64,000 bases of DNA from an uncultured Gammaproteobacteria bacterium (lineage in GTDB: Bacteria > Patescibacteriota > Patescibacteriia > Patescibacteriales > GWC2-42-12). The notes beneath the pieces were generated by a model. That model had not been told where the DNA came from. It saw only the letters and a program-made list of their open reading frames with translations, and did no database searches. Positions 3,361 to 51,844 of the stretch are shown here, piece after piece (the stretch's first letter is position 1; every line of letters begins with the position of its first letter). The stretch covers positions 13,079 to 77,078 of the forward strand of contig CAZLKB010000001.1 of NCBI GenBank assembly GCA_964560005.1, written 5' to 3'. A program made the position numbers and the translations under genes.

Positions 3361-3831
3361 AAATTAAATTTTCAATTTCTAATTTTCAATTTCTAAACAA
3401 TTATATAATTTCTCAATTTTCAATTAATTTCATTTCTTAAACTCGTTCCAATTTTATTAAAAATCAGTGTTAATTCATGAGCTTCTTTCCATAATTACCT
3501 TAATTCATTAATTTCTTCCTTGTTGGTTTCAGCGATTAACTCTAACCAATATTTAGTTTCCTGAATTTCTTTTCTACAGATAAATATTTTATTTTTAAAA
3601 TCTTTTCTTGAAGTGGCGCCGTTGGCTTCGCAATAATTCGCTCCGACACTAGTGGCTGATCTGATTAGTTGCGACACTATATTATCGTTTATTGAATTCC
3701 TTTTAATTTTTATTAACAACCCGATTATTTTTTTACTAAATAATTTTGTTCTATCCTCCAAATCGTACTGCATAATTGAAAATTATTTCATTGGAAATTG
3801 TTTGAAAATTAGAAATTGAAAATTAAAAATT
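3361..3831. repeat. heptamer-built inverted repeat whose arms (3361..3428 and 3775..3831) enclose the four-helix-bundle gene
   Basis: The reverse complement of the right arm shares a perfect 23-nt run, AATTTTCAATTTCTAATTTTCAA, with the left arm. Further matches are AACAATT and AATTTTCAAT. The arms abut the start of the 2635..3360 gene and the stop of the 3832..5019 gene. Confidence 0.85.
3495..3773 (-). CDS. four-helix-bundle protein (23S rRNA intervening-sequence protein family), ended by an in-frame TAA
   Basis: LIRSATSVGANYCEANGATSRKDFKNKIFICRKEIQETKYWLELI is the family core motif. After TAA at 3495-3497 the same frame continues LWKEAHELTLIFNKIGTSLRNEIN to TGA at 3420-3422, which looks like the missing last helix. 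Confidence 0.8.
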   Translation of the reverse strand: MQYDLEDRTKLFSKKIIGLLIKIKRNSINDNIVSQLIRSATSVGANYCEANGATSRKDFKNKIFICRKEIQETKYWLELIAETNKEEINELR

Positions 3832-5019
3832 CTACTTATATCTTAAAGAAATCAGCGGATCGCTCTTGCTCGCCTGCCTGGCCGGAATCAGGCCGGTGAA
3901 AAATCCCACCAAGGTGGCCACCGCTAAAATAAAAATCAAAAACCAGCCGGGAAAATAAAACAGCGAAATCGCCAGGCCGCCCATTTTCTGGGCCAGGAAA
4001 TTAAATAAAAAATTAAACAGCTGGCCGGCGATAAATCCCAGCGCCACGCCGAAAACCCCGCCCAAAAAACCCATAATGGTTGATTCAAAGACAAACATCC
4101 AAAGAATATCCTGATTGGTCGCCCCGATTGATTTCATGATGCCGATTTCTTCCGTTCTTTCCATGAGCGTCACCACCATGGTATTGAACATGCCGATGGC
4201 GCTGACCATTAAGGCGATAGCTCCGAACAGGCCGAGAATTATCCTGACTACCTGAAAAGTTTTTTCCACTTGATCAATGATGTCGGTTAAGGCGGAAACT
4301 ATGAACCCGCCGCCGGTTAGGCTGTTCCTGACGTCGTTCATCGCCCGGCTGGAAGAGCATTTGACCTTCAGCCTGGAATAGGCGAAAGACGGGTAAAGAC
4401 TAGCCAAGGTTTTTTGGTTGGCGAAAACAATGATGTCTTTTTTGTCAACCAGTCCGGTAATTTTATAATCTATGGCCGCCCTTTCCCCCGAATCGCCGGT
4501 AAAAAATATTTTTATGCTTTCCCCCGCCATCGCTTCCGGAGCCTTTTCAAATACTTTGGCTAAAGTGTTGGAAATTATCACCCCGCCGCTTCCCTCGCCG
4601 ATCTCTTCTCTCTGAATGACTTTCAGGCCTTCCAGGGCGAAAAAATTTTCATCAACCGCGATTACCTTGGCGTCCGTCACCAAGCCGCTAAACTCTAATT
4701 GCCCGGTAGTTTCAAAAACCGGGCTAACCAGGCTGACACCGGGAATTTTACCGATGCCTAAAATCTCCGCCTGGCTGATGGCCGGGCTGGATTCTTTAGG
4801 ATAAACGTCTAAGGTTACGAGCGAATCGGCCGTGGTAATGGTTTCTAAAAGAGTCCTTTGGATGCCGAAGCCCAAGGCGACCAGAAATAAAATCGCGCCG
4901 ATACCCACGCTCATGCCTAAAATGGTCAAAAGCGTCCTGGAAGTTCTGGCCTTAAACATTCTGGTGGAAAATTTTAATAGATTCCAGAAACCCATAAAGT
5001 AATAATTTTCAATTCTCAA
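3832..5019 (-). CDS. ABC transporter permease, FtsX/MacB type
   Basis: The N-terminal TM helix RTLLTILGMSVGIGAILFLVALG is followed by a large extracytoplasmic domain and then three C-terminal TM helices containing EIGIMKSIGAT. The first 8 codons (MRIENYYF) are repeat-encoded, so the real start may be ATG at 4995. Confidence 0.85.
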   Translation of the reverse strand: MRIENYYFMGFWNLLKFSTRMFKARTSRTLLTILGMSVGIGAILFLVALGFGIQRTLLETITTADSLVTLDVYPKESSPAISQAEILGIGKIPGVSLVSPVFETTGQLEFSGLVTDAKVIAVDENFFALEGLKVIQREEIGEGSGGVIISNTLAKVFEKAPEAMAGESIKIFFTGDSGERAAIDYKITGLVDKKDIIVFANQKTLASLYPSFAYSRLKVKCSSSRAMNDVRNSLTGGGFIVSALTDIIDQVEKTFQVVRIILGLFGAIALMVSAIGMFNTMVVTLMERTEEIGIMKSIGATNQDILWMFVFESTIMGFLGGVFGVALGFIAGQLFNFLFNFLAQKMGGLAISLFYFPGWFLIFILAVATLVGFFTGLIPARQASKSDPLISLRYK

Positions 5020-5152
5020 TTTTCAATTTTCAAACAATGACCAATGGATTAATGATTAAATTTTCAAACATGTACTCAATTTAATTAATTGAAAATTAAA
5101 ACATTGAAAATTCATTGAAAATTAGAAATTGAAAATTGAAAATTTTAAATAT
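5004..5152. repeat. heptamer-built inverted repeat ('GAAAATT' subfamily) between the ABC ATPase and permease genes
   Basis: AATTTTCAATTCTCAATTTTCAATTTTCAAACAATG opposes CATTGAAAATTCATTGAAAATTAGAAATTGAAAATTGAAAATT. Confidence 0.85.
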
Positions 5153-6802: not shown

Positions 6803-8434
6803 TTATGAGTTATGCGTTACCCGTCCTGCCAGCCCCAGCGCCAGCCATAAAAACAACACCCCGAAATGCAGGCTCCAAAGCCAATGGTCAAAAGACATTA
6901 GAATTACCAGGGAAATAAAAATAGAAATACTTACCATTGAATTTATAGCATAGTCGTTTTCGCTAATTCTAAATTTATAATCTTCCCCCAGCCGGGGACA
7001 TGCAATTTTTAATGAATTGTTTGAAAATTGGTTAATTGAAAATTGTTTGTCCTCCGAAGGCTTGCCGAAGGGGGGAAAATTGAAAATTATTAAACATACT
7101 ATCAGCCCAATAAATAAAATTAATCCTACTATCCCCGTCTCCGCCCAAACCAATAAGAACACATTATGCGCCGGCTGGTAATAATAGCTCGACTCGTCCG
7201 GCTTTAACTCATTATACTGGGCCAAAGTATAATTCCCTAGACCCGCGCCTCCGGCCCAATATTTTTTAATTATCGGCCAGGCATTTTTAATCGACTCAAT
7301 CCTTTCGCTGTTTGATTTAATTTCCAGTCGGTTCGGCGCGTTCGCGAAGCTTAAGGCGCTTGGCATCGCCGCGAAAGATTGAACCGGATATAGCCGCGTC
7401 ATAACTAAATTAGGGTACAGTAAAAATAAAACCAGCGCCACCGCTCCGATAATCAGCATAGCCTGCGCCAGCGCCTTCTCGGCCAATAGGTTTCTTTTGG
7501 CTAAAGACCACAGAACCAGCGCCAGCATGCCCAGCCCGGCTCCCAGCCAGGCGCTTCTGGAAAAGCTAAAAAATAAGGTAGCGGTAAAAATCACTAATAA
7601 TGACCAAGACAATATTTTAAAAATTTTAACATTGAAAATTGTTTGAAAATTATCAGTCGGCTGGTTAATTGAATTTTTTGATTTTTTTGAAAATTGAAAA
7701 TTGAAAATTGAAAATTGATTAAATTTTTCTAGCCTAACAACTTCCCCTACCAAAAGCAGTATGCCTACAGCCATCAGCCCGCCCAATATATTGGGGTGAT
7801 CCAGAGAGCCATAGGCTCTTAGCCATCTTTCGCCCATGCCGTCCGACGCCACCGTCTCAATAACCGACGTTCCCGGCTGGCTCGCCTGGTGCAAAGCCAG
7901 CCCGAGCCATTTGCTTTGAAATGTGGCTTGAAATAAAAACTGCCAGATCGCCAGCAAGGCCTGGGTCGCTATGCCGAAAAGCAAACTCCAAACCAGCTTT
8001 ACTCTATGGTATTGGCTGGCCGCCAACAGCCAGAATAAACCCGCGCCTAAAATCAGCCAGCCGAATTTATAAAACGCCAGCAGTTTGCTCAAAGCAAAAA
8101 AAATGGAAGTAGCCGAAACTAAAATTAAACCTCCAATCAGCAGCCAGGTTAATTGAAATTTTTTAATTGTTTGAAAATTAGATAATTGGAAATTGTTTAA
8201 AAATTGAAAATTAAAAATTAAAAATTTTTTTTGGAAAACCCGATAAATCACAAAAAGAAATAATAATAATATCAATAGTACATCCGTCCCATACAAACTG
8301 TATGTTCCATACTCCCACGGCCCGTTGTTTAAAACTCCCGGCTTAATGATCCAGCGGGTCTGGAGCGGCAGCGTGAAAACTAAGAGGTATAAGCCGTATT
8401 CAATTGTTTTATTTAAATACTTCATATAATACAA
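6803..8434 (-). CDS. O-antigen ligase/polymerase (Wzy_C-like) polytopic membrane protein
   Basis: Many TM helices, plus FSFSRSAWLGAGLGMLAL, which is typical of Wzy_C. Three repeat-encoded in-frame insertions are present (FNFQFLNNFQLSNFQ, FNQFSIFNFQFSKKSK, FSINQFSNNSLK). Confidence 0.7.
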   Translation of the reverse strand: MYYMKYLNKTIEYGLYLLVFTLPLQTRWIIKPGVLNNGPWEYGTYSLYGTDVLLILLLFLFVIYRVFQKKFLIFNFQFLNNFQLSNFQTIKKFQLTWLLIGGLILVSATSIFFALSKLLAFYKFGWLILGAGLFWLLAASQYHRVKLVWSLLFGIATQALLAIWQFLFQATFQSKWLGLALHQASQPGTSVIETVASDGMGERWLRAYGSLDHPNILGGLMAVGILLLVGEVVRLEKFNQFSIFNFQFSKKSKNSINQPTDNFQTIFNVKIFKILSWSLLVIFTATLFFSFSRSAWLGAGLGMLALVLWSLAKRNLLAEKALAQAMLIIGAVALVLFLLYPNLVMTRLYPVQSFAAMPSALSFANAPNRLEIKSNSERIESIKNAWPIIKKYWAGGAGLGNYTLAQYNELKPDESSYYYQPAHNVFLLVWAETGIVGLILFIGLIVCLIIFNFPPFGKPSEDKQFSINQFSNNSLKIACPRLGEDYKFRISENDYAINSMVSISIFISLVILMSFDHWLWSLHFGVLFLWLALGLAGRVTHNS

Positions 8435-8545
8435 ATTTTCAATTTCTAATTTTCAAACAATGCAATAATTCTTCAATTCTTAAATTAATTGAAAATTAAA
8501 TCATTAAAAATTGTTTGAAAATTGAGACTTGAAAATTGAAAATTA
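8434..8545. repeat. heptamer-built inverted repeat ('GAAAATT' subfamily)
   Basis: AAATTTTCAATTTCTAATTTTCAAACAATG opposes ATTGTTTGAAAATTGAGACTTGAAAATTGAAAATT. Confidence 0.85.
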
Positions 8546-8547
8546 TC

Positions 8548-9744
8548 TCACTTTACTAAAAATAAACCGCTAATCTTCTTTATATACTTCTCCCGATACT
8601 CCTCTCTCCTGTCATTGGCATGAAATTTTAAAACCTGATCGCTGATTACCACGCGAGTATCGCGGTTCATCAGCTCGGTTAAAATTTTCGGCAGCAACCT
8701 CAGCTGTAAAGCTTTAAACCAGGGTTCCAGGCCGCCGAAAAACATATCTGCCAACTCGTAATAAAATTTCCCCGGAGCTCTGCCGGCGTCGCGCCGCCTT
8801 GACCAATGTCCGGCCTGTTCGCCCGCCGGCTTGTCCGCCAAATCCGTCAGCTGACGGAGTAAAGCGGACCGATTAGGCAGGCAACCGTTCAGCCAGCTGT
8901 TGACTCCGATAAATTTTTCGTAAACCCCCTCCTGCTGATAAAATGGCGTTAACCCGGCCAGCCAATAAATAAAATATATATCTTCCTTATTAACCCCCTT
9001 TTCGGCCCAAGGCCGATCCTTGCCTACCGGACAAGCAGGCGCCTCGGGTGGAAACGTGGGGTTGGGGAGATTTTCCTCTTTTGCCCCCTTGATAAAGGCT
9101 CGTCTCGCCGTAGCGTAGCCGGGGCGGAGGGATGAAGGGGGATTATTTTTTGTTTGTAGCATCAAGGCGCCTAAATCCAGAGCCTCTTCACTGATAAAAA
9201 AACTCAAACAAATTTTATCTTTAAATTTGCCTAAACCCGGCCTTAAGCCAAGCATCTTAACTAGCGCGACACAGCAGAATCGCGTCAGCCAGATTCTCTT
9301 AGCTTGAGTAATTATAAATAAATCAATATCTCCCTCTTCTTTTAAATTATGGCTGCCCATTAAATTTCCCAGCGCGATCATTTTTATCCAAGGAATCAAT
9401 TTAAAAAGTCTAGCGACTTTAAGGGCGCGTTTAAATTTTCTGTCGGTTACATTATAACGAGCCAGCCGCACCTTAAGGATAGCTTCGCGCCCGGCCAAAA
9501 AATAAAAACCGTTTTTTTGTTCAACGATATTCTTTCCCCCTTGATAAAGCGGGACAAAGGGGGATTTTCCAATGAGAGCATCTAGTTCTTTGACCACTTC
9601 AAAAAAACCGCACTTTAAACCCAGTCCCTGCCAGATCTCAAAAGCAGTCAAGGGAAAGTCAAACATATCAAAATAGGCAACCGTTTTCACGATTGCCTCC
9701 CTAATATTTAAAAATTGTTCGGAATTAATATCTTTAAAGCGCAT
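8548..9744 (-). CDS. nucleotidyltransferase-fold (Pol-beta superfamily) domain protein, hypothetical
   Basis: [21 protein letters not shown] fits the G-S...D-x-D nucleotidyltransferase motif. The track start at 9798 lies in repeat sequence ([18 protein letters not shown]), so I prefer ATG at 9744 (MRFKDIN). The gene contains GC-rich palindromic in-frame insertions. Confidence 0.5.
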
Positions 9745-9750
9745 GTTTAT

Positions 9751-9960
9751 GATGTAAAATGTAAATCTCAAAATGTAAAATGACAATTTAAAATACAAAA
9801 TAAAAATTCTAAATTCTAATATCTAAATTCTAAATAAAAAGTAATGAATATTGGTTTTTTATTTGAAATTTAGATATTGGAATTTGTTTGGATTTTAGGA
9901 TTTATAATTTTAAATTTTTCATTGTCATTTTACATTTTGAGATTTACATTTTACATTTTA
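9751..9960. repeat. nested inverted repeat: 'TGTAAAA' arms enclosing 'CTAAATT' arms
   Basis: Outer arms GATGTAAAATGTAAATCTCAAAATGTAAAATGACAAT / ATTGTCATTTTACATTTTGAGATTTACATTTTACAT. Inner arms AATTCTAAATTCTAATATCTAAATTCTAAAT / ATTTGAAATTTAGATATTGGAATTT. Confidence 0.9.
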
Positions 9961-11128: not shown

Positions 11129-11245
11129 AAATTGAGCTGATTTTTATATGATTACAAAGATGTTTTTAATAATTTTAGTTTAACAATTAAAATTGATTAG
11201 CGCAACTGCCATGCCACCCCCTTTATTAAAGGGGCCAAACTAATC

Positions 11246-11389: not shown

Positions 11390-12028
11390 ATGAAAACAAA
11401 AACGGCAGAAAATCCCGGATTCACCTTGGTGGAAATCATGATAGTCGTCGCGATCCTCGGCCTGCTCGCCGCCATCGTCGCCCCCAACTTCGTCCGGGCG
11501 CGCTTAGTCAGCCAAAAAAACGGCTGCATCTTTAATCTTAAAAAGATCGAGATCGCCAAAGCCTCCTTCGTCCTGGACAGGCGAATGGCCGTGGGCATGG
11601 CGGTGTCTATGGATGACCTCTACAGCACGAATCGGCCGGTTTGCCCGGGCGGCGGCAAGTATTCGCCCGGCCAAGTCGGCGTTAATCCCTCCTGCACTTA
11701 CACGGGGCATGCTCTGGAAGGATCCGAATCTCCGCAAAATCAAGAGGCGCAAGAGATTCGGATTGGAAATGGCAGCTACATCAAGATCGGAAGGATAGCG
11801 ACCGAAAACGGCACCATGAAATTCACCCTTAAGACAATCGAGCGGTTTGAAACCGCCCATCCTGATTTAAAGATCACCGGCCGGCAGGTGGTATTCTCTG
11901 CCTCAAATGTGGTTATGGGAATTTTACTTTGGCATGAGCCGAGAACCCGCGCCATCGCGCTGGAAAAACCGACCCGGCAACGACCCGCGCCTCTCGGAAC
12001 CCGCACCCTCTCGGCGCAAGCCCGCTGA
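11390..12028 (+). CDS. type IV pilin-like protein (prepilin N-terminal cleavage/methylation domain) with a ~100-aa C-terminal extension
   Basis: NPGFTLVEIMIVVAILGLLAAIV is the classic G/FTL-x-E prepilin motif. It is followed by C-x-x-NLKKIE and a C-terminal Cys pair (CPGGGKYSPGQVGVNPSC). GC-richer than the surrounding genes. Confidence 0.8.
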   Translation: MKTKTAENPGFTLVEIMIVVAILGLLAAIVAPNFVRARLVSQKNGCIFNLKKIEIAKASFVLDRRMAVGMAVSMDDLYSTNRPVCPGGGKYSPGQVGVNPSCTYTGHALEGSESPQNQEAQEIRIGNGSYIKIGRIATENGTMKFTLKTIERFETAHPDLKITGRQVVFSASNVVMGILLWHEPRTRAIALEKPTRQRPAPLGTRTLSAQAR

Positions 12029-12050
12029 AAGGTAATCAAAAATTCACTAA

Positions 12051-12086
12051 AGAGCCAGAGAAACTCCCTCCGGCTCTCTTTTTTTA
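12051..12086 (+). terminator. rho-independent terminator of pilin cassette 1
   Basis: The AGAGCC..GGCTCT stem is followed by CTTTTTTTA. A near-identical copy lies at 12843..12877. Confidence 0.7.
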
Positions 12087-12137
12087 TCTTGCAAAGGGGA
12101 AAGCAACCTTTAAAGATTAATTGCCCCCTTTAAGACC

Positions 12138-12300
12138 ACCATGGGGGCTTGGGGGTCCGAGCTGAGCGCCAAGGCGCGTGCGCAAGAATGTCAAAGAAGC
12201 AATAGCGAATTGAGGACCCCCAAAACTTCTTTGGATACTTTCTTAGTTATAAGAAAGTATCCCCTAGCGGAGCGTCGTGAACGAATTAACTGATAAATGG
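12138..12300. repeat. ~165-nt structured repeat, copy a (copies b and c at 29244 and 63617)
   Basis: Sequence ACCAtGGGGcTTGGGGGTCCGAGCTGAGCG...CTAGCGAATTGAGGACCCCC, then a perfect hairpin GGATACTTTCTTAGTTATAAGAAAGTATCC, then CCTAGCGGAGCGTCGTGAACG. Confidence 0.85.
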
Positions 12301-12317
12301 CGGGGTTTTAATGCGCC

Positions 12318-12346
12318 TTGACTCATAACTAATAATGTACTAAAAT
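12318..12346 (+). promoter_or_regulatory. sigma70-like promoter of pilin cassette 2
   Basis: TTGACT (12318-12323), a 17-nt spacer, then TAAAAT (12341-12346). Confidence 0.65.
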
Positions 12347-12352
12347 TTTGCC

Positions 12353-12457
12353 AGAATCAATCAAGGCGCCTGATTTGGCCGGTAGCCGAATCGGGTTGCA
12401 AAAAGCAAGGGTTAAAAACCTAACTCTATCCTGATTGATAAAGGAGAAAAAATCTTT
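12353..12457 (+). promoter_or_regulatory. conserved structured 5' leader of pilin cassette 2
   Basis: My hand alignment of promoter plus leader against copy 1 shows 8 substitutions and one 1-nt indel over about 108 nt. The first 90 coding nt differ at 29 positions. Confidence 0.5.
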
Positions 12458-12823
12458 GTGAAAATAAAAACATCCCGAAGGTACGGCTTCACCCTGGTGG
12501 AGGTAATATTAGTCGCCTTTGTCTTCTGCTTGCTCGCCACCATCCTCTCCGCTCCCTGTTTCTTTAGGGCGCGCGAAACGAGGCAAAAAAACACCTGCAT
12601 CGCCAATCTGCAACAACTGGAAAAGGCAAAAATTGCCTGGGCTGCCGACAACGGGATTACTAATGGTACGCCCATAGACGACCGCTTTTACACCGGTCCG
12701 ATATTTATTCCGAATATTCCCTGCTGTCCGGCTGGCGGCGTATATAGTATTAACCCAATCGGCGTTCCGCCGACCTGCTCCTTAACTAATCTGAGGCATG
12801 TTCTCCCGTTAAAACCGCGATGA
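12458..12823 (+). CDS. type IV pilin-like protein (prepilin N-terminal domain), short paralog
   Basis: GTG start. Motifs YGFTLVEVILVAFVFCLLATIL, C-x-x-NLQQLEKAK and CPAGGVYSINPIGVPPTC parallel the upstream paralog. Confidence 0.75.
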   Translation: MKIKTSRRYGFTLVEVILVAFVFCLLATILSAPCFFRARETRQKNTCIANLQQLEKAKIAWAADNGITNGTPIDDRFYTGPIFIPNIPCCPAGGVYSINPIGVPPTCSLTNLRHVLPLKPR

Positions 12824-13082: not shown

Positions 13083-16000
13083 ATGCCTAGTACAATAAAA
13101 ATCAAGGGGGCGCGCGTCCATAACTTAAAAAATATTGACGTGGAAATTCCGCGCGATAAGCTGGTTGTCCTGACCGGACTGTCCGGTTCAGGCAAATCCA
13201 GCCTGGCTTTTGACACGATTTACGCCGAGGGTCAGCGCCGCTATGTTGAATCCCTGTCCGCTTACGCCCGGCAGTTCATCGGCCTGATGGATAAGCCTGA
13301 TGTTGATTCAATTGAAGGGCTGTCGCCGGCTATTTCCATTGATCAAAAATCCACCAGCCATAATCCGCGTTCAACCGTAGGCACCATTACGGAAATTTAT
13401 GATTATTTGCGCTTGCTTTACGCCCGCATCGGCGTGCCGCATTGCCCCTTATGCAACGAATTAATTAAGCCCATGTCTCTTGATGAAATCGTCCGCCAAA
13501 TTACGGCTAATTTCTTAAATCAAGATATTATTATCTTGGCTCCGATTATTAAGGATAAAAAGGGAGAACATAAGAGCATTTTAGAAGGCGTCGGCAAAGC
13601 CGGTTACTCCCGCTTGCGCTTTGACAAAGTGATCTACACTCTGGAAGAAGTGGAAGATTTAAATGTGGATAAGCAGAAAAAACATAATGTGGAAATTGTG
13701 ATTGACCGGCTAAAAATCGCCAAAGACAAGGAAGACTTGGCGCGGCTTAGTGAAAATGTGGAAAAAGCCTTGGAGTTGGGCAATGGACTGGTAACCATTT
13801 CGCCACAAAATGCTTTAATTAAAACTGATAAAAAATTAACTGAAACAGATAATAAAAAAACGCCCAATTCCCAAATTCCCTCCGTCCGGGAACAAGCAAC
13901 TCCAAATTTCCAAACAAATCCTAAGTCCGAATTACTAAATTCAAAAAAAATTCAAAATTCAAAATTCAAAATTCTAAATTCAGATGTCACCTATTCAAAA
14001 CTCTTAGCCTGCCCGAAATGCGGCTTGAGTCTGCCTGATTTGGAACCAAGAAATTTTTCTTTTAACTCGCCTCATGGCGCTTGCCCTGACTGCACCGGAC
14101 TGGGCACCAAGCTGGAGATTGATTCAAAATTAATTATTAATCCTAACCTAACCATCGCCCAGGGAGCGATTCGCCCTTGGGCCCACAGCACGGCCACCGG
14201 ACAGGGCTGGCTGATGCGGATTCTCGGCACCGTGGCCATGGATCACGGTTTTGACTTAAATACGCCGGTAAAAAACTTAACTGAAAAACAATTAAACATC
14301 GTGCTCTACGGCTCGGGCGCGAAAAACTATAATGTCAATTATCAAAGCGAGCGTTTTTCCGGAGAATTAACCACCGAGTTCGAAGGCGTCATTCCCAATC
14401 TGGAGCGCCGCTTTCAGCAAACCGAATCGGATTATATTAGACGTGAAATTGAGCAATATATGCGCGTCTTAATCTGCCCGACCTGCCTGGGCAAGCGCTT
14501 AAAGCCGGAAACCCTGGCCGTCACCGTCGCCGGCCAATCAATTTATGACATCACTTCAAAAACCATAGATAAAATAAAAAAAATCTTTTCCGATTTGGCC
14601 AATTCCTCGGTTTTAACCGGCCGCGAGAAAAAAATCGGGTCGCGGATAATGAAAGAAATCTGCGCCCGGCTGGATTTTCTCTCCGATGTCGGTCTGGACT
14701 ACTTAACTTTGGAAAGATCGGCCAACACCCTGTCCGGCGGCGAAGCCCAGCGCATAAGATTGGCGACGCAAATCGGTTCGGCTCTGATGGGTGTAATTTA
14801 TATTTTAGACGAGCCGTCCATCGGCCTGCACCAGCGGGATAATAACAAGCTGATCAACACGCTTAAAAAATTAAGAGATCTGGGCAATACCGTGATTGTG
14901 GTTGAGCACGACGAAGCCACCATGCTGGCCGCGGACTGGCTCCTTGACATCGGCCCGGGAGCCGGCGAACATGGCGGCCAGATCGTGGCCCAGGGCACGC
15001 CTCAAGAGGTTAAAAAAAATCCAAAATCTTTAACCGGCCAATACCTAAGCGGTAAAAAATCAATCCCGGCGCCGCTTCAATATCGGTCCTCTACCGGCCG
15101 CAGCCTTAAAATTATCGGCGCTGAAGAACATAATTTAAAAAACATTGACATTGAATTTCCCTTAGGGAAATTTATCGCCATCACCGGCGTTTCCGGCTCG
15201 GGCAAGTCCACCTTAATGACCGATATTCTGGCCAGAGCCTTAAATCAGAAGCTTTACCGCGCCAAAGAGGCGCCAGGCAAGCATAAAACTATCTTGGGAT
15301 TGGAATATATTGATAAAGTCATTGATATTGACCAGTCGCCTATCGGCCGCACGCCGCGCTCCAACCCCGCCACCTATACCGGCTCCTTCACGCCGATCCG
15401 CGATTTGTTCGCCGCGCTTCCCGAAGCTAAAATCCGCGGCTATAAAGCCGGACGGTTTTCTTTTAATGTGGTGGGCGGCCGCTGCGAAGCCTGCGGCGGC
15501 GACGGCGTAGTTAAAATTGAAATGCAATTCCTGCCGGACATCTATGTTGAATGCGATGTCTGCCACGGCAAGCGCTATAACCAGGAAGTTTTGGAAATCC
15601 ATTACGGCGCGCGCCACGGCGTCGGATCGGGAAAAAATATTTCCGAGGTTCTAAATATGACCGTGGAAGAAGCCATGCATTTGTTTAAAAACATCCCGGC
15701 GATTCACCAAAAGCTTTCCGCGCTGAACGAAGTCGGCTTAAGCTATATAAAACTCGGGCAATCGGCTACCACTCTGTCCGGCGGCGAGGCCCAAAGAGTA
15801 AAATTGGCCACCGAGTTATCCCGCCGCGCTACTGGCAAAACCTTATACATTTTGGATGAACCCACCACCGGCCTGCATTTTGACGATATAAAAAAACTCC
15901 TTCATGTTTTGAACCAATTGGTAGATAAAGGCAACACGGTTCTAATCGTTGAGCACAACCTGGATGTCATTAAATCCGTGGATTGGGTGATTGATCTCGG

Positions 16001-16115
16001 GCCCGAGGGCGGCGACAAAGGCGGCTACATCGTGGCCGCCGGCACGCCTAAAGATATCGCTAAAAGCAAGAAGTCATATACCGGGCAATATTTAAGCAAG
16101 ATACTGAAAAAATAA
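13083..16115 (+). CDS. uvrA: excinuclease ABC subunit A
   Basis: Two ABC modules ([25 protein letters not shown]; [24 protein letters not shown]) and zinc-finger Cys clusters. An in-frame repeat-encoded insertion lies at about 13864..13982. Confidence 0.97.
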
Positions 16116-18128: not shown

Positions 18129-18152
18129 ATTATGTTTATATTGAAATAATTA

Positions 18153-18268
18153 ATGCAAAATGTAAATCTCAAAATGTAAAATGACAGTTTAAAATGTAAA
18201 ATGTCAAATTAGAAATTTTAAATTTTGCATTGTCATTTTACATTTTGAGATTTTAACTTTACATTTTT
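18153..18268. repeat. AT-rich inverted repeat, 'TGTAAAA' subfamily
   Basis: ATGCAAAATGTAAATCTCAAAATGTAAAATGACAG opposes TGTCATTTTACATTTTGAGATTTTAACTTTACAT. The right arm supplies the last codons of the DedA ORF (VKNVKLKSQNVK). Confidence 0.85.
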
Positions 18269-18870: not shown

Positions 18871-18980
18871 TAAATTTAAAATTGAAAAATCAAAGTTTAA
18901 AATGACAGTTTAAAATGTAAAATTAATAATTTTTCATTTTACATTGTCATTTTGCATTTTAAAATTTACATTTTCCATTT
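18871..18980. repeat. AT-rich inverted repeat, 'TGTAAAA' subfamily
   Basis: AAATGACAGTTTAAAATGTAAAAT opposes ATTTTACATTGTCATTTTGCATTTTAAAATTTACATTTT, between the ArgRS stop and the DedA start. Confidence 0.8.
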
Positions 18981-18982
18981 TT

Positions 18983-20770
18983 TTACATCTCCTCCACCGT
19001 TTCAATCCCCAATAACCCTAATCCATTCTTTATCACCTGGCTGACCGCCATAATCAGCGCCAATCTGGCCGCCTTAATCTCGTTTTTTGCCTTTAGCACC
19101 GGCACGCTGTGGTAATAATCATTAAATTCCTGCGCCAACTCAAATAAATACTTGGCAATTTCGCTCGGATCATAATTTCTCCCGGCCAAAGCCACAATCT
19201 CCGGATATTTCGCCAGCTTATTCACCAACACCGCCTCCTTCGCTTCTATTAAATTCTCAAATTTCAAATTTCTAATTTCTGACTTCTGACTTCTGACTTC
19301 TGACTTCTTAATTATTGAATTTATCCTGGCTCCCGTATATTGCAAATAGGCCGCCGTATAGCCATCAAATCTTAGGGCTTGCTCAAGATCAAAAGTAATA
19401 ATCTTGTCCGCGCTAACTTTAATCATTTCAAATTTCAAAGCGCCAACCACGATCTTTTCCACTACCTGGTTCAATTTTTCTTTCGGCCAATTTTGATGTC
19501 TTTTCCTGGTTTCTAAAGCCGCCCTCTCCAGAGCCTCCTGGCGCAGATCTTCGTAAGTTATGACATTGCCGGTGCGCGAAGACATCATGCCATCAGGCAA
19601 TTTAACGAATTCATAGCTTAAATGCTTAGTCTCTTGTTTAAAGCCCAAGAGTTCCAAAACCTTAAATAATTGCTTAAAATACAGGCTCTGCCTGACATCA
19701 ACTACGTAAATTGATTTATCTATTTTATATTTTTCAAATTTTTCCATGGCCAGCGGCAGATCGGCCACCGGATAAAGCGCCGTGCCGTCGCTTCTTAAAA
19801 TTACCAAAACGCCTAGATTATATTTATTTAGATCGGCGATAATCGCGCCCTGGCTTTTTATTAAAAATTCTTTCTTATACAGATTGGCGACTATACTTAA
19901 GCCTTTTTCTATCAGCTCATTTTCATAAAAAATGTGTTCAAACCTGACGCCTAACTGCTTATAAATTTCTGAAAAGCCATCAAGGCTCCATTTTCTGGTT
20001 TTCTGCCATAATTTATACTCCTTACCCGTCCGGTTTTCAATTTTTTTCATGATTTCACCTACTTCAATTTTAGCCGTTTCGTTATTTTCCAACTCCTGGC
20101 AAGCCCGAACATAAACTTTTCCCAAAAAGTAACCCTTATTGCCTCCCCTTATATGCTCCCCTCCTTGATAAAGGGGGGCTAGGGGGTATTTTCCTTTTTT
20201 AACGCCTTTAGCAAAGGAGGGTTGGGGAGATTTATAAAATTTTTCCAGCGCCCATAGCGTCTTGGACACATGGATACCAAAATCATTAATATAGGAGACT
20301 GGCATGGCCTTAAAGCCGTTAGCAGCTAAAATTTTGGTTACCGCGTCGCCGTAGCTGATATTGCGCAAATGACCGACATGATATTCTTTGTGAGTGTTGG
20401 CATTGGAAAATTCCACCATGACTTTTTTGTTTTTCCCGTCCTTATTTAAACCATATTCTGCCTTCTCTTCCAGCACTTCTTCAATAATTCCTTCCGCTAA
20501 TTTGGCTTTATTAAAAGTAAAATTAATAAACGGCCCAATCGCCTTGGTAGCCACCACGGTATCGTTCAGCGCCACTTTCCTCATTAATATTTCGGCCATT
20601 TCTACCGCGCTTTTATTAAACTGCTTGGCGATAGTATAGCAAGGCAGGCTTAAATCGCCGAATTCCGGCTTGGGCGGATAGACTAAATCCGCCGGCTTAA
20701 CTAGCTTTTTTTTCAGCGCCGTATTTATGGCGTCGGCAATATTCTCTTTTATTTTTTCCAGAGTATTCAT
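18983..20770 (-). CDS. argS: arginyl-tRNA synthetase
   Basis: ANTHKEYHVGHLRNISYGD (HIGH region) and the C-terminal anticodon-binding region. Two in-frame repeat insertions lie at 19251..19312 and 20141..20240. Confidence 0.93.
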   Translation of the reverse strand: MNTLEKIKENIADAINTALKKKLVKPADLVYPPKPEFGDLSLPCYTIAKQFNKSAVEMAEILMRKVALNDTVVATKAIGPFINFTFNKAKLAEGIIEEVLEEKAEYGLNKDGKNKKVMVEFSNANTHKEYHVGHLRNISYGDAVTKILAANGFKAMPVSYINDFGIHVSKTLWALEKFYKSPQPSFAKGVKKGKYPLAPLYQGGEHIRGGNKGYFLGKVYVRACQELENNETAKIEVGEIMKKIENRTGKEYKLWQKTRKWSLDGFSEIYKQLGVRFEHIFYENELIEKGLSIVANLYKKEFLIKSQGAIIADLNKYNLGVLVILRSDGTALYPVADLPLAMEKFEKYKIDKSIYVVDVRQSLYFKQLFKVLELLGFKQETKHLSYEFVKLPDGMMSSRTGNVITYEDLRQEALERAALETRKRHQNWPKEKLNQVVEKIVVGALKFEMIKVSADKIITFDLEQALRFDGYTAAYLQYTGARINSIIKKSEVRSQKSEIRNLKFENLIEAKEAVLVNKLAKYPEIVALAGRNYDPSEIAKYLFELAQEFNDYYHSVPVLKAKNEIKAARLALIMAVSQVIKNGLGLLGIETVEEM

Positions 20771-21972: not shown

Positions 21973-23190
21973 TTATCCTTTTACCACTTTTACAAACCCC
22001 CTCTTGCCCTTCTGCAATAATACTCCCTTTTCAGTTATCTCCACAATCTTATTAATATCTTTTTCCACTACTCCATCAACTTTAACCCCGCCCTGCTCCA
22101 CCAACCTCCTGGCTTCGCCCTTGCTGGCCGCCAAATCTGCCTTCACTAATAACTCCATAATATTCATACTTCTTACTTCTAACTTCATACTTCTTACTTC
22201 TTCCGGCACTTCTTTCTTCTGCACGGTTTTTATAAAATATTCCTGCGCCTCATTGGCTTTTTTTTCCCCATAATTGATTTTCGTAACAGCAAAAGCCAAT
22301 TTCATCTTGGCGTCCCTGGGATTGGCGCCATTTTTTAATTTACTCAAAATATCTTTTATCTCCGTTGTCGGCAGGTTGGTGCATAACTCAAAGCCGGCGA
22401 GCAGGATTCCGTCCGGCCAAGACATAATCTGACCGTACATATTCTCCGGAGTTTCATCCAAATTAACCATATTACCCTCGCTTTTTCCCATCTTCTTGCC
22501 GCTGGAATCAACCAATAATTTCAAAGTCAAAACGCATTTCTCCTTATTTCTCATGGCCTTCATTAAATCCCGGCCGCAAAGCATGTTAAAAGTCTGATCA
22601 TTGCCGCCGATTTCCAGGTCAACCTCCATAGCCACACTATCGTAAGCCTGGGCTATCGGATATAAAAATTCATGGAAATAAATCGGCTTGTTCTGTTTTA
22701 TTCTTTCCTGGAACATGTCTCTTTGCATAATTTGCTGGGCGGTAAAATTAGAAGTCACTTCAATTAAATCTCTAAAACTCAATTTATCGCTCCACTTGCT
22801 GTTAGACATTATCTTGGCCGGATTGTCGCCGCTGAACTTTAGATAAGACGAAGCTTGTTTTTTATAGTTTTTGGCATTAGCCAGAACCTGCGCCCGAGTC
22901 ATTTTTTTTCTGGCCGCGGTTTTATCGGTCGGGTCGCCGATCATGCCGGTAAAATCCCCGATCAAAAATATTACTTCATGGCCTAATTCCTGAAATTGCG
23001 CCAATTTGCCTAAAGTAATCGCATTGCCAATATGCAGAGCCGGCGCGCTCGGGTCATAACCGCAATAAAGCCTAATACGCTTACCGGACAAAAGCGTCTT
23101 TTCCAAGGCTTCGCGGTTAGGGTAGATATTTTCCACGCCTCTGGTCAAAACCTCATCAACCTTTTGCTTATCGGTTATAATTTTTACCAT
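21973..23190 (-). CDS. tyrS: tyrosyl-tRNA synthetase
   Basis: YCGYDPSAPALHIGN (HIGH), KMGKS and a C-terminal S4-like domain. An in-frame heptamer-repeat insertion lies at 22157..22212 (EEVRSMKLEVRSMNIMEL). Confidence 0.95.
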   Translation of the reverse strand: MVKIITDKQKVDEVLTRGVENIYPNREALEKTLLSGKRIRLYCGYDPSAPALHIGNAITLGKLAQFQELGHEVIFLIGDFTGMIGDPTDKTAARKKMTRAQVLANAKNYKKQASSYLKFSGDNPAKIMSNSKWSDKLSFRDLIEVTSNFTAQQIMQRDMFQERIKQNKPIYFHEFLYPIAQAYDSVAMEVDLEIGGNDQTFNMLCGRDLMKAMRNKEKCVLTLKLLVDSSGKKMGKSEGNMVNLDETPENMYGQIMSWPDGILLAGFELCTNLPTTEIKDILSKLKNGANPRDAKMKLAFAVTKINYGEKKANEAQEYFIKTVQKKEVPEEVRSMKLEVRSMNIMELLVKADLAASKGEARRLVEQGGVKVDGVVEKDINKIVEITEKGVLLQKGKRGFVKVVKG

Positions 23191-29477: not shown

Positions 29478-32400
29478 TTACAAATTTTTTAATTGCTCTC
29501 TAAACTTCTCTAATTCTGCCTGCCACCCCGCTAATTTCTCTTTTTCTTTTTTCACGATCTCGGCCGGCGCATTACTAACGAATTCCTTATTAGCCAGCCT
29601 AGCTTCCGCGGCCTTAATTACTTTTTCCAGATTAACAATTTCCTTTTCCAGTCTGGCCTTCTCTTTGGCTTTATCCACGGCTCCAACCAAATATATTTCT
29701 ATATCGCCAACGGCCGCGTAAATCGCGCCGGCAATTTTCTCTCCTTTAGTTTTAATTTCTAACTCACTAATGCCGGTGCGTAAACTTTTTATTAAGTGCG
29801 CCTGCTCGGTTATTAATTTTTTCCGCTTACCCGCATAAATCACCGCTTTAACTTTCTGCCCTGGCTCAACTTTATTTTCCGCGCGCGCGTTGCGGATAGC
29901 GACAATAATCTCTTTCACCACCTCAAACTCTATTTTGTCATTCTGGAGCGAAGCGATAGAATCTGATTTCGGCCATTTCTCCACCATTAAAAAAGTTTTA
30001 TGCCCCATCTTTTGCCAAATTGTTTCCGTCACGAATGGCATAAACGGATGCCAGAGCTTTAATAAATTTTCTAAAACATAATTTAATATCCGGCTCTTTT
30101 CTTCATTTTTTTCAAACTTGCTGGCCTCTAAATACCAATCGGCTAAATCATCCCAGGTGAATTCGCGCAAACTCTCCCCGGCCTGCGAAAAACTATAACT
30201 TTCCAAATCTTCGGTTACTTTCTTTATTAACTCTTCCATTTTTCCCAATATCCACCTGTCCGATATTGTTAGATTCTTTAAGTTTAATTCATTATTCATG
30301 ATTCGTGATTCATGATTCGTGATTATATAACGCGCCACGTTCCACAGCTTATTGGTAAAATTCCTGAAACTGGCGATTTTATCTTCGCTATATTTGGCGT
30401 CGTTGCCCGGCGTATTGCCCATTAACAGCGATAAGCGAACCGCGTCGGTGCCGAATTTATCAATCATCTCCAGCGGGTCAATGCCGTTGCCTTTTGATTT
30501 GCTCATTTTCTTGCCGTTCTTATCCAGTATCATGCCGTGCAGATATACTTTTTCGAACGGAATTTCGTTTAAGGCGTAAAAAGACATGATAATCATGCGC
30601 GACACCCAGAGGGTAATTATTTCATAGCCGGTTTCTAAGACCTGCGTGGGATGAAACCTGGCTAAATCACCCGATTTTTTGCCTTTAACATAATTATCCG
30701 GCCAGCCCAAAGTGGAGAAGGTCCAGGTGCCGGAAGAAAACCAGGTGTCTAAAGTATCTTCATCTTGAACCCAAAAATCTTTTTTCAATTCATTTAATAT
30801 ATCTTGGCATTCATCGCTATTAAAATGCGAGGCGGAATTTTCAACTTTAATTATTTTCGCGTCTAGCGCAACGGCTATTTCAGCAACCTCTTCCGCAGTG
30901 ACTGCGTGATCCTCTCCGGCTTGAAAGATTACTATTTCTCCGACATTTTCTTTTATTTTCTTAAAATCGTATTTATAATTTTTATACTCTATTAACTCCT
31001 TCTTTTTTGTTCTTAGGGAAGGAGCCAGCATGACCAGCTTTTTTATTTTTAAATTACTGCTCTGTATTATTTTTAACGCTAAGGCACTGCCTAATGAATG
31101 CGTCACTATAATGGAATTTTTATCTATTTTAGCACTAGCCAAGACAAACTTTTCCTGCTCATCGCGATTAGGTTTATCCGGATTGGGCAAGATCTGCCAA
31201 AAATTTTCTTGATTCGGCAATTGCTTGTTTAACCAATTTAACGGGTCCTTTACATCTCTGGTACGATAAAAACCGTGCAAAAAAACAAAATTAGAATTCT
31301 GCGGCGCTTCCGCGCCGACATAAATTTCTTGGTCCTTATCTTCTAACTTCTTACTTCTACCTTCTGCCTTCTTATACCAAACCGGTATCCTATGCCCGAA
31401 CCAAAGCTGGCGCGAAACACACCAATCGTGCAGATTATTCATCCAGTCCAGATACCTTTTTTTGAATCTCTCCGGGATAAATTCGATCTTTCCGTCAGCG
31501 GCCGCCGCGATGGCTTTTTCCTTTAGCGACTTTCCACCCAAACGTTTCAATTTCTTGTCCACGTCCACGAACCATTGCTTTGACGGTATAGGTTCGATTT
31601 GCGTGCCGCAGCGGTAGCATAACGCGATATTATGCAGATAGCCGTCTTCAATATGGTCAAGCAAACCCATTTTTTCCATGTCGGCCAAAATCGCCTCCCG
31701 CGCTTCTTTAGTGGTCAAACCGGCGTATTTACCCGTATTGGCCATCATCCGGCCTTGTTCATTTATGACTTGCTTCATGGCCAGATTATGCCTTTGGGCA
31801 ATTTGATAATCCGTAAAGTCATGGGCCGGCGTAACTTTAATCGCGCCTGAGCCGAATTTAGGATCAACCGCCCGGTCGGCCACCACGATAATTTCAAATT
31901 CACCCAGCACGCCCGGTATTTTATATTTCTTGCCCACCATTTTCTCGTAGCGCTTATCTCCCGGGTAAACTGCCACGGCCGTATCGCCCAATTTTGTTTC
32001 CGGACGAGAAGTGGCCAAAACGAATGGACCGTATTTCAGCCAATACAATTTGCCTTTTTCTTCTTTATATTCCACCTCGTCATCGGCTAAAGTGGACTGG
32101 CACCTGGGGCACCAATTTACCACCCTGACTCCGCGATAAATCACGCCTTCGTCATACATATCCACAAACAGCTTTTTCACTGCCTTGGCCCGCGGCTCAT
32201 CCAAGGTAAAGGCCTGGCGCGACCAATCCAAAGACGCGCCCATCTTTCTGGTCTGGCGCAAAATCGTAGCCTGGGTCTCCCGCAAAAATTGCCAAACCCT
32301 TTTTAAAAATTCTTCTCGACCTAAATCGTGGCGCGTTTTTTTCTCTTCCTGCCACAATTTTTTTTCCACCACGTACTGCGTAGCGATGGGCGCGTGGTCC

Positions 32401-32657
32401 GTGCCCGGAATCCAAAGAGCACGTTCGCCCTTCATCCGATGATAACGAATCAGTAAGTCTTCTATGGCCAGCATGGCCGAATGCCCCAGATGCAATTTAT
32501 CCGTAATGTTGGGTGGAGGCAGAACTATGGTGTACGGTTTGGCCGTTTTAGGCAAGCCTAAGTTATCCGGATTAAAAAATCCCGACTTTTCCCACTTTTC
32601 ATAAACGCCGTCTTCGTATTCGGCCGGATTATATATTTTCGGCAATTCTACAGACAT
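29478..32657 (-). CDS. valS: valyl-tRNA synthetase with a nested alpha/beta serine-hydrolase domain
   Basis: PNITDKLHLGHS (HIGH), the CP1 editing domain, WCVSRQLWFGHRIPVWY, QDEDTLDTWFSS, KMSKSKGN and a C-terminal coiled coil. A 202-aa segment separates VWY from QDEDT, where only a short peptide is expected. Confidence 0.95.
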   Translation of the reverse strand: MSVELPKIYNPAEYEDGVYEKWEKSGFFNPDNLGLPKTAKPYTIVLPPPNITDKLHLGHSAMLAIEDLLIRYHRMKGERALWIPGTDHAPIATQYVVEKKLWQEEKKTRHDLGREEFLKRVWQFLRETQATILRQTRKMGASLDWSRQAFTLDEPRAKAVKKLFVDMYDEGVIYRGVRVVNWCPRCQSTLADDEVEYKEEKGKLYWLKYGPFVLATSRPETKLGDTAVAVYPGDKRYEKMVGKKYKIPGVLGEFEIIVVADRAVDPKFGSGAIKVTPAHDFTDYQIAQRHNLAMKQVINEQGRMMANTGKYAGLTTKEAREAILADMEKMGLLDHIEDGYLHNIALCYRCGTQIEPIPSKQWFVDVDKKLKRLGGKSLKEKAIAAAADGKIEFIPERFKKRYLDWMNNLHDWCVSRQLWFGHRIPVWYKKAEGRSKKLEDKDQEIYVGAEAPQNSNFVFLHGFYRTRDVKDPLNWLNKQLPNQENFWQILPNPDKPNRDEQEKFVLASAKIDKNSIIVTHSLGSALALKIIQSSNLKIKKLVMLAPSLRTKKKELIEYKNYKYDFKKIKENVGEIVIFQAGEDHAVTAEEVAEIAVALDAKIIKVENSASHFNSDECQDILNELKKDFWVQDEDTLDTWFSSGTWTFSTLGWPDNYVKGKKSGDLARFHPTQVLETGYEIITLWVSRMIIMSFYALNEIPFEKVYLHGMILDKNGKKMSKSKGNGIDPLEMIDKFGTDAVRLSLLMGNTPGNDAKYSEDKIASFRNFTNKLWNVARYIITNHESRIMNNELNLKNLTISDRWILGKMEELIKKVTEDLESYSFSQAGESLREFTWDDLADWYLEASKFEKNEEKSRILNYVLENLLKLWHPFMPFVTETIWQKMGHKTFLMVEKWPKSDSIASLQNDKIEFEVVKEIIVAIRNARAENKVEPGQKVKAVIYAGKRKKLITEQAHLIKSLRTGISELEIKTKGEKIAGAIYAAVGDIEIYLVGAVDKAKEKARLEKEIVNLEKVIKAAEARLANKEFVSNAPAEIVKKEKEKLAGWQAELEKFREQLKNL
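30774..31298 (-). other. inserted YdeN/RBBP9-like serine-hydrolase domain inside valS
   Basis: FVFLHGF, LPNPDKPNRDE, IIVTHSLGS (Ser codon 31095-31097), FQAGEDHAV (Asp 30909-30911) and SASHFN (His 30825-30827). Confidence 0.7.
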
Positions 32658-48420: not shown

Positions 48421-48530
48421 AAATGTAAAGTGTAAAAATCAAAATGAAAAATGACAATTTAAAGTTTAAAATGAATTAATAATTTTACATTTTGCATTAT
48501 CATTTTACACTTTGAGATTTACATTTTAAA
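48421..48530. repeat. AT-rich inverted repeat, 'TGTAAAA' subfamily, directly upstream of uvrC
   Basis: AAATGTAAAGTGTAAAAATCAAAATGAAAAATGACAAT opposes ATTATCATTTTACACTTTGAGATTTACATTTTAAATT. Confidence 0.85.
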
Positions 48531-48782: not shown

Positions 48783-48953
48783 AAGGTTAAAATTTTTAAT
48801 TTTAAATTTTATAATTTTTAAACAATTTTTAATGATTTAATTTTCAATTTTAAAACAGGCCTTTAAATATATTTTGTTTAAAAATTTAAGTATTAAAAAT
48901 TGAATATTGTTTAAAAATTAATAATTAATAATTAATAATTGAAAATTTGTCTT
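48783..48953. repeat. AT-rich inverted repeat between gyrA and the ferredoxin gene
   Basis: AATTTTTAATTTTAAATTTTATAATTTTTAAACAATTTTTAATG opposes ATTAAAAATTGAATATTGTTTAAAAATTAATAATTAATAATTAATAATTGAAAATT. AATTAAT is repeated three times in tandem. Confidence 0.8.
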
Positions 48954-51713: not shown

Positions 51714-51844
51714 TCCCGCCCGTCTCGCCGTATCGTAGCCGAGGCGGACGAAGGCGGCTTGCCCGCCTTGGGTGAGGAATCAAAATTATTGCTTAATTAA
51801 TTTTACATTTTAAATTGTCACTTTACATTTTGATTTTTACATTT

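Follow-up and report, generated by a model that had tools for sequence, protein, structure and literature searches.

The uvrA gene of an uncultured patescibacterium, contained in a contig stretch of 64,000 nt (hereafter the window, whose numbering is used throughout), carries a lineage-specific in-frame insert of about 55 codons at a hypervariable loop of its product. With a probability of roughly three in four, we infer that an AT-rich heptamer-array repeat native to this genome inserted into the gene, where it is translated but functionally neutral, an estimate that covers the insertion event and its mechanism as well as the translation, disorder, harmlessness and lack of function of the segment. 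A first-pass annotation of the same DNA had proposed a tolerated repeat insertion, and this reading is supported and essentially right. The in-frame heptamer repeat that it described within UvrA is present, both as nucleotides and as a 39-aa translation (aa 262-300) in an open reading frame (ORF) of 1010 aa. The limits that it gave, 13864-13982, are too narrow: the insert is composite and starts about 64 nt earlier, near 13800. On its own the UvrA insert is a modest curiosity; it gains interest as an instance of a wider pattern in this patescibacterial lineage, in which intergenic-type repeats (heptamer arrays and GC-rich hairpins) occur repeatedly in frame in tolerant loops of housekeeping proteins.

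The uvrA gene (13083-16115, + strand) is an intact ORF whose product matches solved UvrA structures in the Protein Data Bank at E=0 over its full length in a phmmer search. It has the features of a class I UvrA, namely two ABC ATPase modules, UvrB-binding and insertion (DNA-binding) domains and Zn modules. Among Pfam domains, UvrA_inter spans aa 132-241, UvrA_DNA-bind spans aa 347-458 and ABC_tran is also found. An alignment of 65 relatives shows no variation in Walker A, the signature motifs or the Zn cysteines, and more than 100 proteins annotated as UvrA in metagenome-assembled genomes of Patescibacteria or Falkowbacteria are 73-86% identical to the window protein. The solved class I enzymes of Geobacillus (2r6f, 3uwx), Thermotoga (3pih) and Mycobacterium (3zqj) show the same domain set and motifs, with over 55% identity across phyla. 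Unlike them, the window UvrA has approximately 55 additional residues in the hairpin that corresponds to positions 254-261 of the 2r6f chain, and aa 842-848 form a further extra segment of 7 aa, which is GC-rich. This second segment (nt 15606-15626) is a 21-nt sequence, GGCGCGCGCCACGGCGTCGGA, which encodes GARHGVG and is missing from most relatives as well as from the solved UvrAs.

The larger segment is delimited by the alignments on either side of it. Against 2r6f, query residues 5-239 align to chain positions 24-254 and residues 301-1009 to positions 261-957, leaving 61 query residues where the Geobacillus protein has about 6, and the alignment with Thermotoga UvrA breaks at the same place. 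The position between two conserved UvrA blocks, as described in the first-pass annotation, is thereby borne out. In the window protein, 63 residues separate the GNGL(V/I) block from the (Y/F)S...AC..C block, compared with only 8-12 in Firmicutes, Chloroflexi and Omnitrophota and a baseline of 8-10 aa in most Patescibacteria. Because of this difference in spacing, the insert is placed at ~13800-13982 (+ strand; aa 240-300), about 55 aa beyond the baseline.

The insertion site lies at the C-terminal edge of the UvrB-binding domain, ahead of the second CxxC of Zn module 1, and the Pfam UvrA_inter match stops at aa 241, equivalent to profile position 107 of 109. AlphaFold2 with DSSP assigns a beta strand to LVTISP before the insert (13788-13805, + strand; aa 236-241, in the conserved GNGLVTI block) and another to VTYS after it (13986-13997, + strand; aa 302-305, in the conserved TYSKL block). 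Ten residues past the insert, C310 and C313 form the second CxxC (14010-14021, + strand), in invariant columns aligned to ACPYCG of 2r6f; these cysteines, together with R221 and E227 of the preceding helix, are unchanged in the 65 relatives. R221 and E227 are presumably the counterparts of the UvrB-contact residues R216 and E222 of Geobacillus (Bst) UvrA, a match that a literature search did not confirm. In the AlphaFold2 model, built from the 65 relatives, aa 245-298 are coil, with a block value of the predicted local distance difference test (pLDDT) of 25-38, below 50. The insert is thus modelled in the hairpin turn between strands 236-241 and 302-305, at the end of UvrA_inter, a surface position that appears compatible with the fold and agrees with the surface loop that had been anticipated.

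At the DNA level, the insert begins its repeats with a 21-nt duplication, continues with a degenerate (CCAATTY) array that holds a small GC stem and with the 22-nt core, and closes with (AAAATTC)x5, all on the + strand. Tandem Repeats Finder (TRF) reports the duplication (13815-13857, encoding LIKTDKK / LTETDNK) with period 21, 2.0 copies and 81% matches. The degenerate left array, CCCAATTCCCAAATTCCC, occupies 13863-13899, and its GC stem, TTCCC-N7-GGGAA at 13876-13892, is visible in the predicted fold of the insert. The element core, CTCCAAATTTCCAAACAAATCCTAAGTCCGAA, follows at 13900-13931, where the 22-mer at 13910-13931 encodes QTNPKSE. The right array, (AAAATTC)x5.1 at 13947-13982, encodes 12 aa (TRF: score 65, 93% matches). 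Chance does not account for this array. With at most one mismatch, AAAATTCAAAATTC occurs 7 times in the window versus 0.36 expected, and a period scan of the window at a stringent threshold yields 7 arrays with period 7 but not a single one with a period of 5, 6, 8, 9 or 10. At gathering thresholds, Rfam finds only two tRNAs in the window, and the insert matches no Rfam family.

Similar units build an intergenic repeat of the same genome, termed Family A, which has the palindromic form (AATTTTC)n-AAACAAT...loop...ATTGTTTG-(AAAATTG)n. The reference palindrome at 8428-8551, matched by nhmmer on both strands (E=8e-14 and 2.8e-9), has a DNA fold with z=-5.2. Further intergenic copies lie at 3363-3426, 3773-3837, 4997-5148 and 48783-48945, the copies often abut start or stop codons, and the one at 4999-5148 folds as a long hairpin (z=-3.1). 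Exact copies of AATTGTTTGAAAATT, the core of Family A, stand at 3796, 7015, 7637, 8165 and 8509; when up to 3 mismatches are allowed, this core matches 39 times in the window versus 12.6 expected. A promoter and terminator scan of the intergenic arrays gave weak consensus matches only (27 vs 16.9+/-4.5) and was uninformative. Family A copies also occur in the ORF of a Wzy_C membrane protein (7014-7045, 7617-7657, 7686-7718 and 8164-8228, - strand; nhmmer E=2e-3 to 1e-8), where they are translated in frame as FNQFSIFNFQFS and NFQLSNFQTIKKFQL; the ortholog of this ORF on a related contig, L001, has copies at the same sites, in divergent form.

The same contig provides the key comparison for uvrA. 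One ortholog shares the insert, the protein P0005, which is 82% identical to the window UvrA and is encoded identically on contigs L001 and L002, from two samples of the Joint Genome Institute (JGI), within the syntenic order Wzy-x-RmuC-UvrA. The window and L001 inserts are homologous, occupying the same site and sharing a 68-nt core at 78% identity. The L001 insert consists in order of a GC hairpin, (CCAATTT)x4, the core and (AAATCGA)x4.5, and its (CCAATTT)x4 is collinear with the left array of the window. An nhmmer model trained on eight intergenic Family A arms of the window only matches the left arm of the L001 insert at E=9.4e-6. In the window insert, it gives matches at 13947-13976 (+ strand, E=0.26) and 13939-13899 (- strand, E=4.3), arranged back to back as in the palindromes; out of 1000 dinucleotide shuffles of the insert, one reached the best score and none reached both. 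In addition, the insert core matches the Family A core on the reverse strand with 2 mismatches. The kinship with the AATTTTC/GAAAATT intergenic family, as claimed in the first-pass annotation, is accepted through the L001 ortholog, whose match to Family A is significant; taken alone, the window copy is marginal.

Copies of the core are also found beyond uvrA. The degenerate 22-mer CCAAACRAATCYTAARTCYGAA, the counterpart of window 13910-13931, has 17 exact matches (about 14 non-redundant) on JGI metagenome contigs of 39-59% GC, none of them in uvrA, and a scan of a viral collection with the 22-nt core returned 0 matches. The flanks of the 22-mer follow a unit grammar of the AAATYC type, and arrays of heptamers or octamers with unrelated sequences often lie at their edges. 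In a phosphoenolpyruvate synthase (PpsA) gene on contig L086, an AATTTCC array, a GC-rich piece, a second AATTTCC array and the core follow one another in frame, in the same architecture as the window insert, whose left array is collinear with the array, GC-rich piece and array of PpsA. Compared with the solved enzyme of Neisseria, the core region of this PpsA adds 33 aa, and another insertion, of 13 aa and likewise heptamer-coded, lies near the N-terminus. The core is likewise in frame in an alpha-L-fucosidase (L089; ...SQTNPKSEIQN...) and in a PD-(D/E)XK protein (L096), in the latter in a different reading frame from that of UvrA. A hidden Markov model of the core detects copies outside its training set in a loop of an arginyl-tRNA synthetase (ArgRS) on L101 (E=2.8e-6) and on L094 (E=1.2e-5), as well as in the relatives L020 and L045; its score for the window copy (E=3.8e-10) is high by construction, as this is a training sequence. 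As side observations, core flanks on contigs L083-L099 share the words CGAAGCACGAAAT and CCAAGCTCC, and a conserved hairpin-like motif (...CATCAGCTCGTTGAGCTGAGTACCT...) stands beside the core on L085, L090 and L094.

The identity of the 22-mer across differing contigs may reflect common descent together with mobility, or convergence within a restricted unit grammar. A bolder and rather doubtful proposal is that heptamer arrays and the short core (CCAAACAAATCCTAAATCCGAA with its flanking words) constitute a single widespread, uncharacterised class of tiny repeat, either a mobile element or the product of a repeat-generating process, which would colonise intergenic DNA in several phyla and recurrently settle in frame in tolerant loops (UvrA, ArgRS, PpsA, Wzy, fucosidase, PD-(D/E)XK nuclease). 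If this were true, the class would be a major source of lineage-specific disordered insertions in conserved proteins of Patescibacteria.

The manner in which the insert diverges points to evolution of DNA rather than of protein. Its repeat period of 7 nt is not a multiple of three, and it forms the GC minimum of uvrA, with 29.5% versus 48.7% in the rest of the gene (56% at third codon positions), alongside 33.7% in the intergenic DNA of the window. In the comparison with the L001 ortholog, differences at the three codon positions number 140/60/413 over the 941 codons of the flanks and 17/18/24 over the 48 aligned codons of the insert (chi-square p=1.7e-6), with amino-acid divergence of 14% and 54%, respectively. 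These counts agree with the earlier expectation that conservation would be found at the nucleotide and not at the protein level. The encoded peptide is not conserved across copies, as seen from the uniform codon-position differences, the 54% divergence and the different frame of the core in L096 and UvrA, and a protein database search with the insert peptide gave no candidate sharing words with it. The insert behaves as a DNA-level repeat and not as a protein module, and protein-level constraint is absent in the one available comparison. Stop codons number 0 in the gene frame of the insert and 4 and 7 in the other two frames. Neither right-array unit, be it AAAATTC of the window or AAAATCG of L001, gives a stop in any of the three frames, whereas the intergenic unit AAAATTG produces TGA in every frame once three units are present. 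Such stop-free unit variants fit selection only for an open frame and also argue that the segment is translated.

A survey of the same loop in 119 relatives, aligned with MAFFT, places the insert in a broader context. Large differences in length are confined to the loop, which ranges from 4 to 61 aa (median 16) and is longest in the window protein; it measures at least 20 aa in 49 of the 119 relatives and at most 10 aa in 12. Its fillers differ from genome to genome. Hairpins of the CCCCCTTTAxTAAAGGGGG type (CCCCCTTTATTAAAGGGGG-type), a palindrome that is also intergenic in the window at 11217, fill the loop in L004, L020 and L042. Other loops contain a 30-nt unit present six times and encoding a 10-aa peptide six times (L046:10721-10939), the octamers (TCAACAAT)x4 (L014:10727-10798) or, in a Dehalococcoidales UvrA, a 45-nt local duplication (L051:7272-7355). 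The peptide signature of GC hairpins appears in approximately 40 of the 119 loops, the heptamer-coded peptide only in P0001 and P0005. When the loop is left out of a neighbour-joining tree, the window protein has P0003 (88.3% identical) and P0002 (88.7%) as its closest relatives, both with unrelated loops. The contig encoding P0003 (L100) has two GC hairpins in the loop and no trace of heptamers, and the one encoding P0010 (L101) has only 2-3 heptamer-like units in its UvrA loop. Sister genomes, proposed earlier as a source of alleles that lack the sequence, thus include relatives 88% identical outside the loop that have no heptamer sequence and carry unrelated inserts instead. Since close relatives have unrelated loops, this site turns over fast when compared with the remainder of the protein. 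The loop acts as a permissive sink that is filled and refilled by differing DNA-level repeats in related genomes. One further UvrA relative, P0011, is 1548 aa long, as if uvrA had been partly fused or duplicated in tandem.

The proposed course of events would begin with a Family A-type element lodged in the codons of the beta-hairpin turn in a common ancestor of the window genome and the L001/L002 genome. The turn is solvent-exposed, and the conserved helix before it and the Zn module 1 cysteines after it are intact; owing to this setting, a stop-free insert with a length of 3n could be tolerated and translated as a disordered loop of about 55 residues, rich in Lys, Asn, Ser and Thr. Selection would then act only to keep the frame open, by way of stop-free unit variants. 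Subsequent simple-sequence evolution would include homogenisation of units within arrays, the 21-nt duplication, decay of the left array and loss of palindromy.

Several observations weigh against this account. The window copy by itself is not a statistically secure member of Family A (E=0.26), and a stretch of about 100 nt within the insert (13800-13900) is found nowhere else in the 64-kb window. The window insert shows no hairpin potential when its folds are compared with those of shuffles (z=-0.49 as DNA, +0.11 as RNA), and neither does the L001 insert (z=-0.96); a hairpin reading of the UvrA insert was rejected for this reason. The codon-position test is a single pairwise comparison over 48 aligned codons, and the open frame is only modestly improbable by chance, being kept in 4.6% of dinucleotide shuffles of the insert. 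No strain-level polymorphism with an empty site was seen; relatives carry other inserts in its place, and the ends of the insert are not definable. The AlphaFold2 model is only moderately good (mean pLDDT 68.7), and low confidence in a model does not prove that a segment is disordered. Finally, the heptamer arrays of ArgRS and of tyrosyl-tRNA synthetase (TyrRS) occupy variable loops or linkers with no net gain in length relative to solved homologs, which indicates that such arrays can arise or be exchanged without simple insertion; it is not claimed that all coding heptamer arrays are insertions.

These last two arrays also favour a purely in-place origin, in which slippage and local tandem duplication of uvrA sequence would have generated the segment with no imported element. 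The same explanation would suit the homogenisation of the right arrays to different units in the window (AAAATTC) and in L001 (AAAATCG), the 21-nt tandem duplication within the insert, and the repeats of the L046, L014 and L051 genomes at the same site. It remains improbable in view of the 22-nt core and flanking architecture shared with the unrelated PpsA, the occurrence of the core in other proteins, and the match of the L001 copy to a model built solely from intergenic copies of another genome. The intergenic-like GC content of the insert also speaks against it, and single slippage steps of 7 nt would frameshift a strongly conserved gene.

An adaptive loop, for example a disordered tether through which ultrasmall cells adjust the interaction of UvrA with UvrB or with DNA, is still harder to sustain. 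Its location in the UvrB-binding domain, the prevalence of extended loops in the clade and the frame kept open in two lineages would be in keeping with such a role. Against this, no sequence, length or composition is conserved between relatives that are 88% identical elsewhere, the codon-position spectrum is uniform, amino-acid divergence greatly exceeds that of the flanks, and differing genomes carry differing, recognisable DNA repeats. The 12 relatives with no more than 10 residues, as well as other phyla, manage without an extended loop.

Phase variation would require (AAAATTC)n to act as a contingency locus, with the gain or loss of one 7-nt unit frameshifting uvrA and switching nucleotide excision repair off and on. 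Like known contingency loci, the tract is a non-triplet tandem repeat in coding sequence, it is perfect over about five units, and its units have clearly been turned over between orthologs. It differs from them in that five heptamer copies form a short tract, no frameshifted or copy-number-variant allele is seen (the P0001 cluster has a single member, and L001 and L002, from two samples, encode an identical protein), and the genes concerned are housekeeping or essential ones. On/off switching is implausible in the essential aminoacyl-tRNA synthetases that bear similar arrays, and the non-repetitive DNA neighbouring the UvrA tract has no counterpart in contingency loci. This explanation is therefore given very little credence.

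Repeats are hard to assemble and the window is a metagenome-assembled contig, but an assembly artefact, or an element removed before function, such as an intein, an intron or a translational bypass, is hardly credible given the homologous insert that two independent JGI assemblies carry at this very codon position, the stop-free gene frame beside closed alternative frames, the stop-free unit variants that indicate translational constraint, the length of 183 nt (too short for an intein) and the lack of an Rfam match; intein, intron and bypass were rejected on size, open frame and unit variants.

Insertion of a genomic repeat, the favoured explanation, has its closest known parallel in the Rickettsia palindromic elements (RPEs), sequences of about 150 bp with 44 integrations in R. 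conorii, nearly half of them in ORFs (PMC10969869). Like the UvrA insert, RPEs are short and non-autonomous, lie in frame in unrelated housekeeping genes, add a peptide at fold-compatible positions, and are shared by some close relatives and absent from others; they are also dispersed and occur in intergenic DNA, as the UvrA element probably does. RPEs are palindromic, belong to defined families and have a conserved encoded peptide, whereas the UvrA element consists of 7-nt units around a core of 22-32 nt and has no hairpin potential, although its intergenic Family A relatives do fold (z=-5.2 and -3.1). In addition, the host is a patescibacterium, and the site has been refilled repeatedly by other repeat types. 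The UvrA insert works like RPEs but is not a member of the RPE family; of the analogy drawn in the first-pass annotation, the in-frame insertion and compatible surface site hold, while the palindrome and the conserved peptide do not.

A second parallel concerns the repeats themselves. Heptamer direct repeats, known as TAACTGA arrays, occur in Beggiatoaceae, cyanobacteria and Bacteroidetes, and their generating mechanism and origin are unknown (PMC4679880). As in the window, these arrays comprise 2-8 tandem 7-nt units with a strong preference for period 7, are abundant in intergenic DNA, mix different heptamers within a spacer, and are translatable in one orientation and interrupted by stops in the other. 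The window units (AAAATTC, AATTTTC and AAAATGT) differ from TAACTGA, as does the phylum. Unlike the TAACTGA arrays, those of the window include inverted pairs that form long hairpins, and several lie in conserved protein genes: the UvrA array and four other stringent arrays stand inside ORFs rather than in the intergenic location upstream of start codons. How heptamer arrays come about in scattered bacterial lineages is an unsolved question on which the window arrays bear.

Low-complexity insertions in conserved proteins have a counterpart in eukaryotes. In Plasmodium falciparum, housekeeping proteins carry Asn/Lys-rich insertions that are AT-rich, disordered and fast-evolving and form loops between conserved blocks. 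In the present case, the probable source can be identified as a dispersed element made of heptamer arrays, and the genome, at about 43% GC, is not extremely AT-rich. Literature searches on in-frame repeats in the candidate phyla radiation (CPR), or Patescibacteria, found no prior description. The UvrA case would extend the translation of selfish or simple-sequence DNA within essential proteins, as in Rickettsia, to the CPR, with 7-nt arrays as the material. The UvrA hairpin would represent a natural permissive site, useful for tag engineering and for reading length variation in CPR proteins. For annotators, the case is a warning that an unusual stretch of low complexity in a CPR housekeeping protein can represent DNA of intergenic type rather than a novel domain.

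Of the seven stringent period-7 arrays of the window, five, the UvrA array among them, are in frame within long ORFs. Besides uvrA, ORFs carrying period-7 arrays are located at 6803-8434, 18983-20770, 21973-23190, 29478-32657 and 47125-48417, all on the - strand. In the Wzy_C membrane protein, arrays occupy aa 69-95, aa 238-275 and a position near the C-terminus. The ArgRS array covers aa 485-506 (SIIKKSEVRSQKSEIRNLKFEN, nt 19255-19318) and that of TyrRS aa 330-342 (EEVRSMKLEVRSM). The valyl-tRNA synthetase (ValRS) gene has an array at nt 30287-30324 and a weaker one at 31335-31374, and another weak array lies in a GIY-YIG/UvrC-like ORF (47782-47818). Period 7 is also dominant, with other periods rare, in the related Patescibacteria loci L001, L020, L021, L023 and L045 and in the Omnitrophota locus L053.

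GC-rich hairpins form a separate repeat type, with the pattern CCCCC-N6-10-GGGGG followed by a second G-run; in frame, they encode peptides such as P-L-x-(K/Q)-G-G, and no other repeat fills the UvrA loop of relatives as often. Within the window, these hairpins occur in intergenic DNA at 11217-11235, in ArgRS at 20158-20190 and in the ORF 60631-63579 at 61829-61860. The ORF 8548-9798 shows only the peptide motif (10 aa), the DNA palindrome being demonstrated in its L001 ortholog (L001:8348-8381). A further intergenic repeat, Family B, consists of long hairpins with arms AAAATGTAAATCTCAAAATGTAAAATGACA at 9756-9952, 18157-18260, 18945-18974, 48498-48527 and 51816-51845. With up to 3 mismatches, its arms occur 7 times in the window versus 0 expected, and the fold of 18150-18265 has z=-7.6.

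Two prepilin-like ORFs with an N-terminal GFTLVE motif (11390-12823) lie between rmuC and uvrA; since these two genes are adjacent in L001 and L101, the prepilin-like ORFs look like a lineage-specific gene insertion. On L100, a reverse-transcriptase (RVT_1) gene fragment is situated upstream of uvrA (L100:316-633). The ValRS of the window (29478-32657, - strand, 1059 aa) contains an inserted Pfam Ser_hydrolase domain (PF06821) of about 155 aa at aa 461-616 (E=7e-9), which interrupts the class I catalytic core after WYKK..., such that PF00133 is matched in two stretches.

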